Source: Candidatus Nanoarchaeia archaeon
GTDB taxonomy: Archaea; Nanobdellota; Nanobdellia; Woesearchaeales; DATDXC01
Assembly (NCBI GenBank): GCA_035289425.1
Contig: DATDXC010000032.1
Coordinates: 22,550 to 86,549, forward strand
Reading direction: 5' to 3'
DNA: 64,000 nucleotides
Shown here: one piece after another, positions 22,987 to 49,340 of the stretch
Numbering within the stretch: position 1 is the first letter of the stretch
Layout of the letters: the number at the start of each line of letters is the position of its first letter
Notes under the pieces: model-generated
Seen by the model: the letters and a program-made list of their open reading frames with translations, nothing else
Databases searched by the model: none
Told to the model about the DNA's origin: nothing
Translations under genes and position numbers: made by a program

Positions 22987-23059
22987 AGCCCCGTGGTGTA
23001 GCGGTCAATCATTCTGGCTTTTGGAGCCGGAGACGGCGGTTCGAATCCGCCCGGGGCTA
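22987..23059 (+). tRNA. tRNA-Gln (anticodon TTG)
   Basis: Acceptor AGCCCCG/CGGGGCT, anticodon arm CTGGC-TTTTGGA-GCCGG, T-arm GGCGG-TTCGAAT-CCGCC, discriminator A. Confidence 0.85.
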
Positions 23060-31456: not shown

Positions 31457-33442
31457 CTATCTAAAAAACCTTAAGATTGCTTTTAGAATGTCATTAAAGA
31501 ATATCTGGATTCTTTGGCCGGCTGATACTTTGTTGAGCGTAATGGTTTGTATTTGTTCCACTGCATACGGCCTGTTGTTCTCATCAAAATATGCAGCCTT
31601 GATTGACAGTTGATTGATGCCGATGCTCAGATCCCTGCCTTGCAGTGTTATCTCAAAGCTCTTGTCAGTATTCAACTGGTCCAGTGTCCAGGTCTTGGTA
31701 AGGCCTTCCTCATCAATGGTTATGGTAACATCATTAGGTGAGGATACCGATTCTTTCCTCAGGATAAATGAAAGAGTGTATTCATCATCAAACTCTACTG
31801 AGTCGGGGAGGCTGACATTCGAAATGACAATCGTTGGCAAATCTGACACATCAACCCGGATGAATTGGGAGGCTAACTTCTCCTCTCCATATACCTCTGC
31901 AAGCAGGTCTTGCTCACCTATTTTTATAGGAGTAAATTCAAAGGCCAGCTCTGATTGCTGGCCGATACCCAGCGTTGCCTTTTGGCAATCTTTTTCTATG
32001 CACACATCGATATCCTTAAGCAGAGAATTTCCAGAATTTCTCATACTGCAGGTAATCACAGCCTGCTCATTCTGATATAAAGAAGAGGGCGACACTTCAC
32101 ATACCATCGCTACATTCGTGGCTGCTGTCGGTTCTTCCTTATCTTCCCGAGCATCCTGCAATGCCTGAATCTCGGACAATGTGTAAAAATAGTCTTTTTG
32201 TGATGACGTGAAGGACGCAATAGTGGATGAATTATCTGCGGAATAGATAACAACCGGGAAGGTATAGAGGTAGTTTTTCTGGAGATTGTCATCCACCTTT
32301 ACGATCCAGAAGATTTTCTTGTCTTCATGAGGCTTAAGCATCACCTGCTGCCGCTCTTCACCAATGATGGAAAGCTCAGGAGGTTTTGACAGGTAGAGCT
32401 CATCAGCAACATAATAAGGCTGGAGATTCCTGACTATTGCCTCTATGAGATTATAGGAACCAAAGGCGATTTTTGTCTTGATAGGTTCCACAATCACCTC
32501 TTGGTTTTTAGGAAGAGTGCCTGAATATTCCTTTACTAAAACATCAAATTTCAATGGGTACGTCAGAATATCCATATCTTTGCCCAGCCATTGGTATCGG
32601 GTAGAGGCCTCTTCTGCATCCATCCCTTCCTTAAGCTTAATGTGGGTTGGATCAATGTATGCAAATTGCCCGTACGTAACATCATAGGGAATCCAGCCAT
32701 AGCCAGGAAAGTATACCTCTGCCCATCCATGCGCTCCCCAATTCTCTGAGAAAAGCTTTGATTCAGTGTAGGCAACTCCTGAAACAAATTTGGCGGGAAT
32801 CCCCAATGCCCGATTCAGGGCTATGAACAAGTTAGTAAGCTCGTCACAGACGCCTTGTCTTGTCTGCAACACCCATGATGATTTCTGCGTCACTTCTGCA
32901 GTCAAGGTACTGAGGTCATATTTTATGTTGTTCTTGGTCCATTGGGCTAACTTAAACACGACTATATTGAGGTCATCTTCACCCTCTGCCAGGTTGTTTG
33001 CCAAAGCAAATATAGCAGGGTTATCAGAATCTATAGTGGTAGAAGGTTGGGTAAACTTTTCAACTTCGGGAGGTGCTTCAAATGGAAATTTTATTTTTTT
33101 TGAGATTCTGATGGGCTCTCCTGAGAGAGTTATATCTGAATCGAGGCTGAATTCTAATGTGCCTGCATCAGGATCAGCCCAGCTAAACAGCGCATAGGTT
33201 GGGTAGAGAACAGCTTGTGGAGAGGAAGTTTTTGAAGTGATGTGCTGTTGGCGGTATTCTACCGGAACCAAAGTGAGATTAATGGTGAGATCTTTGATGG
33301 TTGCAGCATTGCTTTTTGGCACGAGGTCAAGATGAGAGCTGATCTTCAGAGTAAGGTCCACTGATTCGCTGGTATAAGGCCATGAATCTGCCAGAACGGT
33401 AGGTATGCATAACAACAAGAAGAGCAGGTATACTTTTCTCAT
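31457..33442 (-). CDS. secreted transglutaminase-like cysteine protease domain protein
   Basis: Has a signal peptide and a transglutaminase core with Cys 'GVCDELTNLF', 'HGWAEVYFPGYGW' and 'DVTYG'. Confidence 0.75.
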   Translation of the reverse strand: MRKVYLLFLLLCIPTVLADSWPYTSESVDLTLKISSHLDLVPKSNAATIKDLTINLTLVPVEYRQQHITSKTSSPQAVLYPTYALFSWADPDAGTLEFSLDSDITLSGEPIRISKKIKFPFEAPPEVEKFTQPSTTIDSDNPAIFALANNLAEGEDDLNIVVFKLAQWTKNNIKYDLSTLTAEVTQKSSWVLQTRQGVCDELTNLFIALNRALGIPAKFVSGVAYTESKLFSENWGAHGWAEVYFPGYGWIPYDVTYGQFAYIDPTHIKLKEGMDAEEASTRYQWLGKDMDILTYPLKFDVLVKEYSGTLPKNQEVIVEPIKTKIAFGSYNLIEAIVRNLQPYYVADELYLSKPPELSIIGEERQQVMLKPHEDKKIFWIVKVDDNLQKNYLYTFPVVIYSADNSSTIASFTSSQKDYFYTLSEIQALQDAREDKEEPTAATNVAMVCEVSPSSLYQNEQAVITCSMRNSGNSLLKDIDVCIEKDCQKATLGIGQQSELAFEFTPIKIGEQDLLAEVYGEEKLASQFIRVDVSDLPTIVISNVSLPDSVEFDDEYTLSFILRKESVSSPNDVTITIDEEGLTKTWTLDQLNTDKSFEITLQGRDLSIGINQLSIKAAYFDENNRPYAVEQIQTITLNKVSAGQRIQIFFNDILKAILRFFR

Positions 33443-33491
33443 CGACCATTACTTAGCGAGAGGGTATTTAAAGGTTTGGTTGAAAGAAAAA

Positions 33492-33638
33492 CGCCGCGGC
33501 TGAGATTTGAACTCAGATGTCCAGAGGACACAAGATATCTGCGGTACTGGTAGGTTCATAAGAACTTCTGTTCTTAGCAATCATACGCCTCAGATTGTTA
33601 CTTTGAGTTTGCGCAATACCAGATTATGCGACCGCGGC
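33492..33638 (-). tRNA. tRNA gene with canonical acceptor and T arms but a ~85-nt insertion (intron-containing or disrupted); anticodon unresolved
   Basis: Acceptor GCCGCGG/CCGCGGC with a G discriminator, and T-arm CTGAG-TTCAAAT-CTCAG. The D-arm is CGCA...TGCG. The body is ~147 nt, with a possible variable-arm hairpin TGTCC-TCT-GGACA. No clean anticodon stem could be placed. Confidence 0.5.
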
Positions 33639-34282
33639 ATTTGAGGGTACAAACCCTTGTTTGCGGAATAGCTGGTATTTATTTAAATGTTTCGAGTTTT
33701 TAGGTTGAACTTCTGCTACCCATTTATGGAGCATTGTGTTGCCTGCGACGCAAAGCTTTAGAGAATTTCGGTCAGACCAGATGTAGTTTCTGAAGTTCAT
33801 ATCGGTTAGGAGTTCTGATAGGTCCCTAATCATAGCATGTGACACTGATGCAAATTCAACTTTGGGATACCTATGTGGTTGACCGTTGAGGTTATCAAAC
33901 CGCAAGCACCCATCTGTATCAAAATATCCACGCACAAAGGCGAGTCTCTTTGAGAGACCTGCCTCCTTGATATAGGACGGGATAGTGACGGTATCTGTTT
34001 TTCTTCCTGGTTTAAATCCATATTCTTGAAAGAAGGAAGTTATATCTTTCTTAGATGTCTGTATGCAGTAGCAGCCATTCTTACCCCCACTTCTAAACTT
34101 GGGGACTAGTTTTAATTTGAATATTGACTCGAGTAAAGGCACAATATTTTGGTGGTAATACTCTTTTTCAGTAAGGCTCCCCTCAGCTCTCAGACTATGC
34201 TTCGGCTAGTTTTGTACAGAGTACCATCTCCAACATGAGCACCAATTAATTCTGCAATTTTTGGATTTATTGTTATACTCAT
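33624..34282 (-). pseudogene. LAGLIDADG homing endonuclease (double-motif) disrupted by a frameshift, or a sequencing error
   Basis: An N-terminal fragment runs from the ATG at 34282 to a TGA at ~34190 and carries motif 1 'LIGAHVGDGTL'. A C-terminal ORF at 33624..34142 in the -1 frame carries motif 2 'FVRGYFDTDGCL'. The stop codon TAA lies inside the downstream tRNA, at tRNA positions 13-15. Confidence 0.7.
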
Positions 34283-34413
34283 TTAAAATCACTGATTGTT
34301 ATTCTGATGATGCTATGTAATTGATTTGCTATCAGAAATGGAAAATCAAAATTTGGTTGCTGAGCCATTTTCTAAGTGATTTTAAAGGGAAGTAAATAAA
34401 AATAATCAGATTA

Positions 34414-34433
34414 CCAGGTTATGCGACCGCGGC
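34414..34433 (-). repeat. 20-nt direct repeat of the tRNA 5' end (GCCGCGGTCGCATAAcCTGG), distal copy
   Basis: 19 of 20 nt identical to positions 1-20 of the tRNA at 33619-33638. It is followed by a TTTAAA-type promoter-like element at ~34455-34470. Confidence 0.6.
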
Positions 34434-34479
34434 AATTAGGATAAAAGAGTCTAAAAGGCTTATTTAAAGGTTTCGGGAT

Positions 34480-35349
34480 TTAAATGTCAAATAAAATCCT
34501 CACTACATATCCAACCCCGAAGCTCAGTGCAGCGACACCTAAGCTGATGGCTGCCATCTCAAGAAATCTGTTCCTAAAAGAAAGATCTTTTGCAACGGAA
34601 GTATAATAAGTAAAGAACAATATGATAAGTATCGCAAAGGACATGGTATAGGCAAGCGCCACATACAAGTTGGACAGCAGGAGGAAAGGCAAAATCAATA
34701 TTATGACTGTGGCAATGTAGGCAATACCGGTATATAATGCAGCTTTTCCTGGCTGCTTTGAAGATTTCTCTGATTTGGTCGATAGATATTCTGAAGCGGC
34801 CATAGAAAGTGATGCAGAAATTCCGGTTACCAAGCCTGCCATTGCAATCAGAGTGCCGTTCTGAAGTGCCAGGGTAAATCCAGCCAAAGCTCCGGTAAGC
34901 TCAACCAGCGCATCATTCAGTCCTAAGACAATAGATCCCACATATTCCAAGCGCTCTTCATTGAGGATGCCTATGAGTTCCTGTTCGTGCATATCTTCTT
35001 CCTTCTCAATCTTTGCGGCCAGGGGGATGTACTTGGCCAGGTTTTCATAATTAGCCTGTGCAACTTGTTCCCCACGCTCCATCAGCTTCAATCCGAAGGT
35101 AAGGCCAAGCAGCTTTGATATCAAGACATATTTTGCAATCCGAAATCTATTAGGCGCAACTTCCTCCTTGCTTATGGTTCGCCAGAAATTGTAATGGCCA
35201 AGCTCACAGTCTGCAATACCCTCAAGGATCTTCTTATTATGTTGAGAAGGCATTGTCTTAGCAAGATTCCTGTACACATAATACTCAGTAATCTCATTTC
35301 TCTGAGCAGCGAGGATGTCCCTTCTCGCTTTTTTTGGTATACGGAGCAT
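34480..35349 (-). CDS. VIT1/CCC1 family iron/manganese transporter with N-terminal ferritin-like domain
   Basis: The N-terminus has a rubrerythrin-like 'ELGHYNFW' di-iron motif. The C-terminus is a multi-TM VIT1 domain. Confidence 0.75.
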   Translation of the reverse strand: MLRIPKKARRDILAAQRNEITEYYVYRNLAKTMPSQHNKKILEGIADCELGHYNFWRTISKEEVAPNRFRIAKYVLISKLLGLTFGLKLMERGEQVAQANYENLAKYIPLAAKIEKEEDMHEQELIGILNEERLEYVGSIVLGLNDALVELTGALAGFTLALQNGTLIAMAGLVTGISASLSMAASEYLSTKSEKSSKQPGKAALYTGIAYIATVIILILPFLLLSNLYVALAYTMSFAILIILFFTYYTSVAKDLSFRNRFLEMAAISLGVAALSFGVGYVVRILFDI

Positions 35350-35455: not shown

Positions 35456-35564
35456 AGCGGGGTAGGGCAGTCAGGAGTGCCCGGGGGGCTCATAACGCTC
35501 ACTGTCGAAGCGGCAGTCGCTGTTCGAAACCCCCAGGTCGGTGGTTCAAATCCACTCCCCGCTA
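35456..35564 (+). tRNA. tRNA-Met (anticodon CAT) with ~34-nt intron at the canonical 37/38 position; initiator-like features
   Basis: Acceptor AGCGGGG/CCCCGCT gives an A1:U72 pair. D-arm is GGGC/GCCC. The anticodon stem is GGGGG/CCCCC, split by an intron at ~35495-35528, with loop CTCATAA. T-arm is GGTGG-TTCAAAT-CCACT. A1:U72 and three G:C pairs in the anticodon stem suggest an initiator. Confidence 0.8.
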
Positions 35565-48349: not shown

Positions 48350-48384
48350 AGAACTGCAATTGAGTATCTGTATATAAAAAGGTT

Positions 48385-48409
48385 ATGCGCCGGCCGGGAT
48401 TCGAACCCG
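48385..48409 (-). repeat. partial duplicate of the tRNA-Gly 3' end (intron-less T-arm plus acceptor 3' strand)
   Basis: In tRNA orientation it reads 'CCGGG-TTCGAAT-CCCGG-CCGGCGC-A'. It is identical to the 3' part of the tRNA-Gly gene at 49209-49229 but lacks that gene's 29-nt T-arm insert. Confidence 0.6.
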
Positions 48410-48461
48410 GATAGCAAGTTTTAAATATTTTCCTTCTTTTTCTAATCCCACTCGTTGTACT

Positions 48462-49241
48462 ATGATTAAAAAAAGACTAAGTCTTTCGGAAAAGAATTAC
48501 ATCAGAGAGATGGTTCAATCCGGCCTCTCGTTGAAGAATATTGCAAACCGCACAGGAAAAAGCAAAACAACTGTTTACTACTACTTTAGAGACATAAGGG
48601 GTAGAACTATCCTGCCCATAACAATAAATGAGGAGAAAAGTGAGCTAGTGGGTGAGTTTTTAGGGATAGTTGCTGGTGATGGCTGCCTGAATAAAACTAA
48701 ACAGCACCATTATAGAGTCTATCTTTTCTTCAATAAGAAGGAGCACGCATATGTCAGAGAGCTGTATACTGCTCTTTTTTATGAGCTTTTCAAGAAGCAG
48801 CCTTCCCTATTTGACCGGAAAGAGAGGGATATATTTATCTTATATTTCTGCTCCAAAGAGATTTATTTTTTTGTCAAGAGGTATCTTACGTGGGATATGA
48901 CTACCAGAAAGAGCCATTCGGTGCACCTAAAATCAAGGAACCACACTACCCGATTTAAGATTGGTTTCTTAAGGGGGCTAATCGATAGTGATGGTTATTT
49001 GTCCAACGACAGAATTGTGTTCAGTACGAGTTCTATGAAATTGGCTGCTGATATTATGCAATTCCTAGATGAATTACATATCAGTTATGGTTTTCACATC
49101 TATAAAGAAAAGAGAGAAAACAGGGTGGATATGCAACACATCACCATCAAGAGAAGAGACCGGAACAAATTTTTGAAGGTCATAAAACCCCGCGAAAGAA
49201 AAAATATATGCGCCGGCCGGGATTCGAATTTCCGGACTTAA
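48462..49241 (+). CDS. LAGLIDADG homing endonuclease (double-motif) with N-terminal HTH
   Basis: Motif 1 'LGIVAGDGCL' and motif 2 'LRGLIDSDGYL', with an N-terminal HTH 'SLKNIANRTGKSKTTVYYYF'. Its last 11 codons are antisense to the 3' end of the tRNA-Gly gene. Confidence 0.8.
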   Translation: MIKKRLSLSEKNYIREMVQSGLSLKNIANRTGKSKTTVYYYFRDIRGRTILPITINEEKSELVGEFLGIVAGDGCLNKTKQHHYRVYLFFNKKEHAYVRELYTALFYELFKKQPSLFDRKERDIFILYFCSKEIYFFVKRYLTWDMTTRKSHSVHLKSRNHTTRFKIGFLRGLIDSDGYLSNDRIVFSTSSMKLAADIMQFLDELHISYGFHIYKEKRENRVDMQHITIKRRDRNKFLKVIKPRERKNICAGRDSNFRT

Positions 49242-49340
49242 GGAGAACCTTAAATCTCCCGGATAAACGGCTTGGAAGGCCATTGTCATTTACGGCAACT
49301 TTTACCCATGTAAAAGCTGTAGCCATTAGACCACCAGCGC
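49209..49340 (-). tRNA. tRNA-Gly (anticodon TCC) with two putative non-canonical introns (D-loop ~34 nt; T-arm 29 nt between positions 53/54)
   Basis: Acceptor GCGCTGG/CCGGCGC with an A discriminator, and anticodon arm ATGGC-CTTCCAA-GCCGT. T-stem 5' CCGGG is separated from TTCGAAT-CCCGG by a 29-nt insert containing a GGAGAACC...TCTCC hairpin. The D-stem GTCT/TGAC is separated by a 34-nt insert. Confidence 0.6.

Follow-up and report, generated by a model that had tools for sequence, protein, structure and literature searches.

We analysed a 64-kb window of the genome of a groundwater archaeon, a Candidatus Nanoarchaeia (DPANN) representative, in which a complete tRNA-Ser(GCU) gene is preceded by a dead LAGLIDADG endonuclease gene and, further upstream, by a second copy of the tRNA 5′ end. 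This arrangement is probably that of a free-standing LAGLIDADG cassette which carries a replacement tRNA 5′ end and lies in the 5′ part of the tRNA-Ser(GCU) gene. Our observations concern the anatomy of the locus, the adjacency of the entire endonuclease family to tRNA genes, an empty site in a relative, the recurrence of displaced tRNA fragments (relics) and the pseudogene state of the window copy. All coordinates are positions in the window, the tRNA-Ser locus is read on the minus strand, and loci of relatives are given as L numbers. The order on this strand is a TTTAAATA box, the distal tRNA fragment, the LAGLIDADG frame and the tRNA gene, with the following features.

34461-34475, minus strand: putative original tRNA promoter, BRE (B recognition element)/TATA-like, CGAAACCTTTAAATA (sequence)
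34468-34461, minus strand: TATA box TTTAAATA, 27 nt before the relic
34412-34433, minus strand: relic, read as the displaced first 22 nt of tRNA-Ser(GCU), GCCGCGGTCGCATAACCTGGTA (sequence comparison)
34283-34411, minus strand: degenerate cassette 5′ region, homologous to the upstream regions of L092, L012, L020 and L096
33624-34282, minus strand: LAGLIDADG pseudogene, double motif, ~219 codons (Pfam, homologue alignment)
33680-33692, minus strand: TATA-like box AAACATTTAAATA inside the open reading frame (ORF), encoding K-H-L-N; candidate tRNA promoter
33492-33638, minus strand: working tRNA-Ser(GCU) gene (ARAGORN on the spliced sequence)
33583-33608, minus strand: predicted intron 1, 26 nt, position 29/30 (hand parse, fold, splice rule)
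33537-33574, minus strand: predicted intron 2, 38 nt, position 37/38 (ARAGORN once intron 1 is removed)

The distal repeat copy GCCGCGGTCGCATAAcCTGG (34433-34414) matches the proximal copy GCCGCGGTCGCATAAtCTGG (33638-33619) at 19 of 20 positions, and at 24 of 26 when the flanks are included (34437-34412 versus 33642-33617), a match expected by chance ~7e-6 times per window. Both this repeat of the tRNA 5′ end and a promoter-like TTTAAA element had been recognised in an initial annotation made from the sequence, and both stand, the latter as the TTTAAATA box at 34468-34461. Over the 22 nt of the relic, the only difference from the working 5′ end is the 16th base, which is C in the relic and T in the working copy.

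A dead endonuclease gene runs into a complete tRNA gene

The ORF matches the Pfam family LAGLIDADG_3 (E 1.4e-8; 35.3 bits versus a cutoff of 22.5) and displays both motifs, LIGAHVGDG and GYFDTDG, with D19 and D124 invariant across the 33 sequences of the alignment of window and homologues. It starts with the ATG at 34282 and stops with the TAA at 33626-33624, which corresponds to nt 13-15 of the tRNA, as first annotated. Alignment with 32 homologues revealed two lesions, an in-frame TGA at 34192-34190, which replaces the near-invariant W31 of the family motif VWELRG, and just after it a 1-nt deletion in a G run at ~34182-34178; the second frame has no stop between 34205 and the terminal TAA. 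The reading frame of the window copy is hence not intact and the gene is a pseudogene. The double-motif gene with a 1-nt frameshift described previously was thus confirmed in its motifs and its frameshift by Pfam and alignment, while the TGA has to be added as a second lesion. Concomitantly, alignment shows that the cassette 5′ region in the window lacks ~40 nt which in relatives carry the CCACTGGACA motif and a TATA box, the gap coinciding exactly with the site of the element; the GTGATTTTAAATG ribosome-site/start context is still in place. The endonuclease gene in the window is dead by stop codon, frameshift and lost promoter. No coding sequence is recorded between the two flanking genes in the NCBI entry of the source metagenome-assembled genome. 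In order to recover further copies, an exact-protein look-up of the two flanking genes was used, which returned 8+ contigs; the intergenic region with the pseudogene is identical in eight metagenome contigs, and the dead copy is present and identical in every contig recovered, so that these contigs give no information on variation.

The closest solved structures are 2DCH, which is the best, I-HjeMI, I-AniI and I-DmoI, which belong to archaeal intron-encoded and intein LAGLIDADG enzymes. A permissive Rfam scan of 33300-34700 returned no match to a group I core or to any other family at E<=10. The ORF is enclosed by neither an intron nor an intein, with no enclosing bulge-helix-bulge (BHB) motif and a stand-alone product of ~220 aa, and it is predicted to be a free-standing homing-endonuclease gene.

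The tRNA gene into which the ORF runs is 147 nt long unspliced and 83 nt mature, with a class II structure, a long variable arm (GUCC-UCU-GGAC), the discriminator G73, an acceptor stem GCCGCGG/CCGCGGC, a canonical D arm, G26 and a T arm CUGAG-UUCAAAU-CUCAG. The anticodon GCT lies at 33578-33576, a T-run terminator follows at 33491-33487, and the anticodon arm CAAGA-UUGCUAA-UCUUG is interrupted by two introns. Intron 1 has the canonical helix-bulge-helix-bulge-helix form, with a central helix GCGC/GCGU, 3-nt bulges AA|A and AU|G and an inner helix CUCA/UGAG, and its minimum-free-energy fold recovers the central and inner helices and the 5′ bulge. Intron 2 occupies the canonical 37/38 position; its central helix is UUGC/GCAG and its inner helix is weak, which makes the motif a relaxed BHB. 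Both are predicted to be archaeal BHB introns. When both are removed, ARAGORN calls an 83-nt tRNA-Ser(GCU), and when intron 1 alone is removed it calls Ser(gct) with a 38-nt canonical intron; on the raw window, ARAGORN and Rfam missed the unspliced gene and a hand parse was needed. One splice rule applied to 22 homologous genes yields tRNA-Ser(gct) in all 22. Among these homologues the anticodon stem shows compensatory changes (CAAGA/UCUUG, CAGGA/UCCUG, CGGGA/UCCCG, CUGGA/UCCAG and CGAGA/UCUCG), and the junction of intron 1 is spanned by two covarying pairs, 28:42 and 29:41. Since the spliced product is canonical and its stem covaries, the tRNA is complete and looks functional. The initial annotation had correctly seen a canonical acceptor stem and T arm at 33638-33492, together with ~85 extra nt and no placeable anticodon stem; the stem is placed once the 26-nt and 38-nt introns are removed, and the extra sequence amounts to 64 nt because the tRNA belongs to class II with a long variable arm. 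Decay, one of the readings offered at the time, applies to the endonuclease gene and not to the tRNA. The tRNA-Ser cassette in the window is therefore at the end of its homing life cycle while its tRNA is intact; the window copy is a decayed member, and the interest lies in the endonuclease family and in a possible route of intron spread.

An extra T-loop intron, ending in ...TGAAAGT, was observed in the tRNA-Ser(GCU) genes of L176 (L176:5830-5870), L092, L020, L018 and L119. It is absent from the tRNA-Ser gene of the window and present in the endonuclease-free L176.

The endonuclease family adjoins tRNA genes

With the repaired protein as query, 208 homologues were found at E<=1e-3; they are ~220 aa long and 45-67% identical, and those with a source name are labelled Woesearchaeota, Nanoarchaeota or Nanoarchaeum. 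Both catalytic motifs (GDG and DTDG) are invariant in the aligned homologues and most genes are intact, the frameshifted ones being those of the window, L019 and L078. The ORF adjoins tRNA-Ser(GCU) in 19/19 of the closest genome loci and in 4/4 distinct metagenome loci (L092, L093, L096 and L099). In those 23 loci it overlaps the tRNA gene or ends from a few to ~90 nt upstream of it; many products end in N-A-[AE]-V-A and some continue with QPGTA, which is the translated 5′ end of tRNA-Ser. In the broader set of 80 relatives, a tRNA gene begins on the same strand no more than ~130 nt from the ORF end in at least 49, and others adjoin intron-rich tRNAs or opposite-strand tRNAs, some of them tail-to-tail. 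Distant relatives (27-35% identity) are found next to tRNA-Gln, initiator tRNA, tRNA-Leu and others, and subfamilies track particular tRNAs (Ser, Gln, initiator Met, Leu). The tRNA-flanking arrangement is widespread in DPANN archaea; to call the locus unlike any textbook tRNA locus, as had been done, was fair, but it is not an isolated case.

A conserved element, (CCACTRG)CACTGGACA, was observed 14-17 nt upstream of a TATA-like box and 50-100 nt before the ATG in at least 28 of the 80 tRNA-flanking LAGLIDADG genes, in subfamilies with different tRNAs; examples are L012:2405-2450, L096, L092, L019 and L043. The idea that CCACTGGACA is a general promoter element of the genome was rejected, as the 64-kb window holds no exact copy. 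Endonuclease-linked tRNA-Gln genes (L041, L043, L057, L062, L066, L083 and L085) have a BHB intron of ~20 nt at position 10/11, with a central helix CCGU/GCGG in L066. The tRNA-Gln of the window (22987-23059) has neither the 10/11 intron nor an endonuclease gene.

Empty sites and relics in related genomes

Element-less loci were obtained through a D-arm DNA-pattern scan of metagenomes, which gave 60 usable loci, mostly other tRNA-Ser isoacceptors of marine archaea. Eight of the 60 are tRNA-Ser(GCU), the key empty sites among them, and an endonuclease gene occurs in none of the 60. Locus L176 is syntenic with the window, sharing SMC, RNase HII, the divergent initiator tRNA and two further proteins, one with a transglutaminase domain (47% identical) and one of the PIN/KH type (77% identical). 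Its order is divergent initiator tRNA, promoter and tRNA-Ser(GCU), with a TATA box 30 nt before the intact tRNA and with no endonuclease gene, repeat or 29/30 intron. As L176 has the tRNA and lacks the cassette, it is an empty site, and thus the kind of element-less allele for which the initial annotation had recommended a search. The 16th base of the tRNA is C in the endonuclease-free L176 and L136, as in the window relic. Similarly, L014 and L119 have upstream genes in common and their tRNAs show 100% identity over nt 1-30, L014 having the endonuclease gene and a 33-nt intron 1 and L119 neither. Presence/absence polymorphism at a homologous site, as expected of a mobile element, is therefore observed.

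A promoter followed by a 5′-fragment relic was found in four loci, with a relic of 22 nt in the window, 25 nt in L092, 28 nt in L012 and ~21 nt in L020. L092 is the closest homologue of the window cassette and its gene is intact. In all four loci the relic lies ~150-220 nt before the ATG, a TATA box is located ~26-30 nt before its nt 1 and the sequence that follows it is homologous (TTTTAAATCAC ... GGTGATTTAAAATG). The L092 relic sits, relative to the divergent initiator tRNA, exactly where the intact tRNA starts in the empty-site allele; in L096 decayed sequence is found in place of the relic. In L012 the relic has a D arm of the GGCAC..ACTGC type versus CGCAT..ATTGC in the working copy, and the locus is therefore chimeric. 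As in the window, the 16th base in L092 is C in the relic and T in the working copy. The relics end at nt 21-28, 2-8 nt short of the 29/30 intron site. Taken together, the most plausible reading is that the distal fragment was once the 5′ end of this gene and was displaced, and that the cassette brought in the 5′ end now in use. The proposal of an endonuclease element at the tRNA 5′ end was essentially right, given the empty site L176 and the repeat with promoter in three other loci.

Further copies of the tRNA-Ser(GCU) 5′ end were observed at other places. In L121, three tandem units of ~73 nt lie ~210 nt upstream of the tRNA, each of which opens with tRNA nt 1-14 and continues with a hairpin, the palindrome GGTCGCGACC and ~25 variable nt; a comparable single unit is present in L119, 64 nt upstream of its tRNA. 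L026 (L026:3120-3330) has two extra 5′ fragments between the ORF and the tRNA.

A second cassette lies at the 3′ end of a tRNA-Gly gene

A family-profile search of the window retrieved an intact 259-aa ORF with helix-turn-helix and LAGLIDADG domains at 48462-49241 on the plus strand. It runs tail-to-tail into a minus-strand tRNA-Gly(UCC) gene at 49340-49209, the 3′ end of which it overlaps. This tRNA gene, which ARAGORN and Rfam missed in the window, is interrupted in the T loop by a 29-nt intron (49257-49229), with a further ~30 nt inserted in the D region; a brute-force search did not fix the borders of the D-region intron, for which ARAGORN tolerates many alternatives. The ORF is flanked by a direct repeat (48376-48405 and 49199-49228), whose outer copy at 48386-48413 equals the last 28 nt of the spliced tRNA-Gly. 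This relic crosses the T-loop intron site by 8 nt and holds no intron, which means that the displaced original end was intron-less and that the endonuclease-linked copy has the intron. In its layout, the second cassette (48376-49340) is the mirror image of the tRNA-Ser cassette at a tRNA 3′ end, and its relic hints that endonuclease and intron move together.

Proposed homing route and link with the introns

From these observations we infer that the tRNA gene is cleaved, where the cut falls, how the break is repaired and that the working tRNA has an internal promoter. In our model, an active enzyme would cut an endonuclease-free tRNA-Ser(GCU) gene around nt 22-30. The 3′ side of the break would then invade a cassette-bearing copy and copy leftwards, thereby acquiring, along with the 29/30 intron, a new tRNA 5′ end and the endonuclease gene. 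The opposite end of the break, consisting of the host promoter and the first 20-28 nt of the tRNA, would be joined upstream, either non-homologously or by annealing to the relic of the donor. The expected product is a promoter, a relic (34433-34412 in the window), the cassette and a complete tRNA, and the relic might serve as a homology arm in later rounds of homing. The tRNA would stay functional because the cassette supplies its 5′ end; its transcription could start from the TATA box in the last ORF codons, or result from read-through followed by RNase P cleavage, and the two small BHB introns would be removed by the ordinary splicing endonuclease. The att-like character previously attributed to the repeat is not retained, since homing by double-strand-break repair is likelier than att-site recombination when no recombinase is present.

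Several points weigh against this model. A recognisable relic is found in just 4 of the 27 endonuclease-bearing tRNA-Ser loci. The relics of the window and L092 match their own tRNA at lineage-specific positions; as a neutral old relic would decay, they must be of recent origin, be formed anew whenever homing occurs or undergo gene conversion. L119 and L121 have partial 5′ duplications whose copies enclose no endonuclease gene, so some other process may generate them. Cleavage activity or a target site is known for no member of the family, and the window copy cannot be active. Finally, the genes around the locus keep their order between genomes whose endonucleases share only ~60% identity, as would be expected under long vertical retention no less than under mobility.

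The 29/30 intron is present in 23/27 endonuclease-linked versus 2/8 endonuclease-free tRNA-Ser(GCU) genes (Fisher p = 0.003, uncorrected for phylogeny). The two close pairs, window/L176 and L014/L119, differ in the endonuclease gene and the 29/30 intron together. Exceptions are L022, L024, L027 and L029, with the gene and no intron, and L105 and L136, with the intron and no gene. It is conceivable, and we suggest it tentatively, that the endonuclease gene and the neighbouring ORF-less BHB intron act as a single, composite unit of homing. Intron-less tRNA genes would be the substrate of the free-standing enzyme, which would cut them near the intron insertion site. During repair the intron would be copied into the broken gene, often along with the endonuclease gene and a replacement tRNA end, and its presence would then shield the new host copy from re-cutting. 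Further hints come from the relic ends close to the intron site, the intron-less tRNA-Gly relic and the 10/11 introns of tRNA-Gln.

Alternative explanations

Duplication of the 5′ fragment might be independent of the endonuclease, with a leader prone to local duplication through slippage, unequal exchange or a small element. The three tandem modules of L121 and the single one of L119, which have no endonuclease gene between the copies, speak for this explanation, as do the extra 5′ fragments downstream of the ORF in L026. We nevertheless consider it unlikely: the relic occupies the same place relative to the homologous cassette 5′ region in four loci, in L092 it falls at the exact position of the intact tRNA in the empty-site allele, and duplication is linked to the cassette by the chimeric L012 locus and by the mirror-image arrangement at tRNA-Gly; moreover, the endonuclease-free modules could be scars of cleavage or of cassette loss. 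It is very unlikely that the locus is the remnant of an integrated virus or plasmid, mostly deleted, with the 22-nt repeats as attL and attR and the endonuclease gene as a passenger. Direct repeats of a tRNA end around foreign DNA are indeed the classic signature of tRNA-targeted integration, but between the repeats of the window, L092, L012 and L020 there is just the endonuclease gene with its leader of ~150-220 nt and no integrase, the family adjoins tRNAs without repeats in dozens of genomes, and the repeats show no fixed core, their length being anywhere from 13 to 28 nt depending on the locus. That the protein has been domesticated for a host function tied to the tRNA gene, as a regulator or maturase, is scarcely credible. 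The 45-67% identity within the family, the syntenic position kept across genomes and the conserved upstream motif would agree with such a role, whereas the presence or absence of the gene at syntenic sites, pseudogenes in whole populations with an intact tRNA, the invariant catalytic acidic residues and subfamilies that flank different tRNAs on either side all disagree with it.

The distal fragment could also be the true 5′ exon, which has a well-placed promoter, of a tRNA with a giant ORF-bearing BHB intron of ~795 nt in the D loop or at 8/9; this is highly improbable. The initial annotation had raised the D-loop version and suggested searching for a BHB across its exon-intron junction. A BHB scan of the whole kilobase found none joining the end of the distal fragment, at the D-loop boundary, to the proximal copy; in addition, the proximal tRNA is complete from nt 1 and 23/27 homologous loci have no recognisable distal fragment. 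The sole in-register BHB-like candidate lies at 8/9 and would be cut on its 5′ side after 34426, with the downstream exon starting at 33630; an identical tRNA would result from this splice, circularisation of the intron would regenerate the TAA stop, and the pairing is also possible in L092, which likewise has a GCCGCGG acceptor. This candidate arises because UGC-CGCG-GUC-GCAU pairs with its own second copy in a bulge-helix-bulge of 3/4-4-3/4 bp. However, the pairing depends on the acceptor palindrome CGCG and is impossible in L012 and L020 (GCCGAGG), L119 and L121, it is energetically disfavoured (-10.6 kcal/mol, the best dimer reaching -20.6), and the acceptor stem of the tRNA itself is in competition with it. 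The same 1 kb holds 440 BHB-like candidates, many of them equally good by chance. As for a group I intron with a homing endonuclease, it was rejected since the permissive Rfam scan gave no group I match around the ORF.

Promoter-like boxes and neighbouring genes

The TATA-like box in the K-H-L-N-K-Y codons of the ORF may drive the working tRNA. The box lies 41-48 nt before nt 1 of the tRNA, and its position is fixed at about -50 in the closest homologues; nucleotide conservation of these codons goes beyond the need of the protein, yet it is not above that of the catalytic motif.

A promoter-like 13-mer, AAAC(C/A)TTTAAATA, was observed in three minus-strand copies, preceding a 661-aa gene (33465-33477), within the endonuclease ORF (33680-33692) and preceding the relic (34461-34473); the 13-mer of the relic promoter is also the promoter of this downstream 661-aa gene. 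An initiator tRNA-Met gene with a 36-nt canonical intron lies at 35456-35564 on the plus strand, divergent from the tRNA-Ser locus. The divergent initiator Met/Ser tRNA pair is also found in L176, L096 and L092, and in the window the two tRNAs are separated by a VIT1 gene (34480-35349).

Relation to known systems and significance

SegB of the T4 tRNA gene cluster and mobE, which goes with the nrdB intron, are free-standing phage homing endonucleases (PMC2790892, PMC13096335). As with SegB, mobE/I-TevIII and F-CphI, the endonuclease gene described here lies outside an intron or intein and adjoins its presumed target gene. The phage free-standing enzymes spread by break repair with co-conversion of flanking markers, and degenerate copies are common, as they are here. 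MobE with I-TevIII is a case of 'trans' or 'collaborative' homing, and the F-CphI/psbA-intron pair is reportedly another. In such homing a neighbouring intron with no ORF travels with the endonuclease gene and interrupts the target, as it would in the composite unit, which might thus be an archaeal counterpart of the phage association of a free-standing endonuclease with an ORF-less intron; we advance this analogy with caution. The phage enzymes are, however, of the GIY-YIG or HNH type, whereas the present ones are predicted LAGLIDADG endonucleases of cellular archaeal chromosomes. Unlike the phage systems, the cassette overlaps the tRNA gene, appears to bring a replacement tRNA end and to leave a relic, and its companion introns are BHB rather than group I introns.

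Among archaeal enzymes, I-DmoI, I-PorI and I-Tsp061I share the fold, the double motif, the archaeal host and the association with stable-RNA genes and BHB introns; their ORFs lie inside rRNA BHB introns and are spliced out, whereas here the ORF is upstream of a complete tRNA. Mitochondrial mobile endonuclease ORFs, such as the atp6-linked ORF of Allomyces, insert in a gene end and bring a duplicate terminus. As in that case, the replacement end would spare the host gene and the original end would be left as a relic; elements of the Allomyces type replace protein-coding 3′ ends in frame in organelles, whereas a tRNA 5′ end, or 3′ end at the second locus, is concerned here in archaea. Elements of the SSV and pNOB8 types, whose integrases target tRNA genes, duplicate part of the tRNA gene as attL and attR. 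With them the cassette shares direct repeats of the tRNA end that flank the insert and a regenerated tRNA, and it differs from them by the lack of a recombinase, a size of a single 0.8-kb cassette and a variable repeat length. A 2018 survey of archaeal group I introns lists rRNA hosts only. We found no description of archaeal tRNA-flanking LAGLIDADG genes in the full-text literature, the coverage of which was incomplete, so a prior description is possible.

Altogether, these data reveal a large family of free-standing LAGLIDADG genes set against tRNA genes in DPANN archaea, sometimes with what we read as replacement tRNA ends and relics; under the cassette model, the relics would mark where the tRNA gene was broken. 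Standard tools miss both the tRNA-Ser and the tRNA-Gly gene, and DPANN genomes may consequently look tRNA-poor only because their tRNA genes are interrupted in this manner. The family would also be a source of new LAGLIDADG enzymes whose natural targets are presumed to be highly conserved sequences. Short ORF-less BHB introns occupy many unusual sites in the tRNA genes of archaea, and the composite unit, if real, would offer a route at the DNA level for the spread of such non-canonical introns from one archaeal tRNA gene to another.

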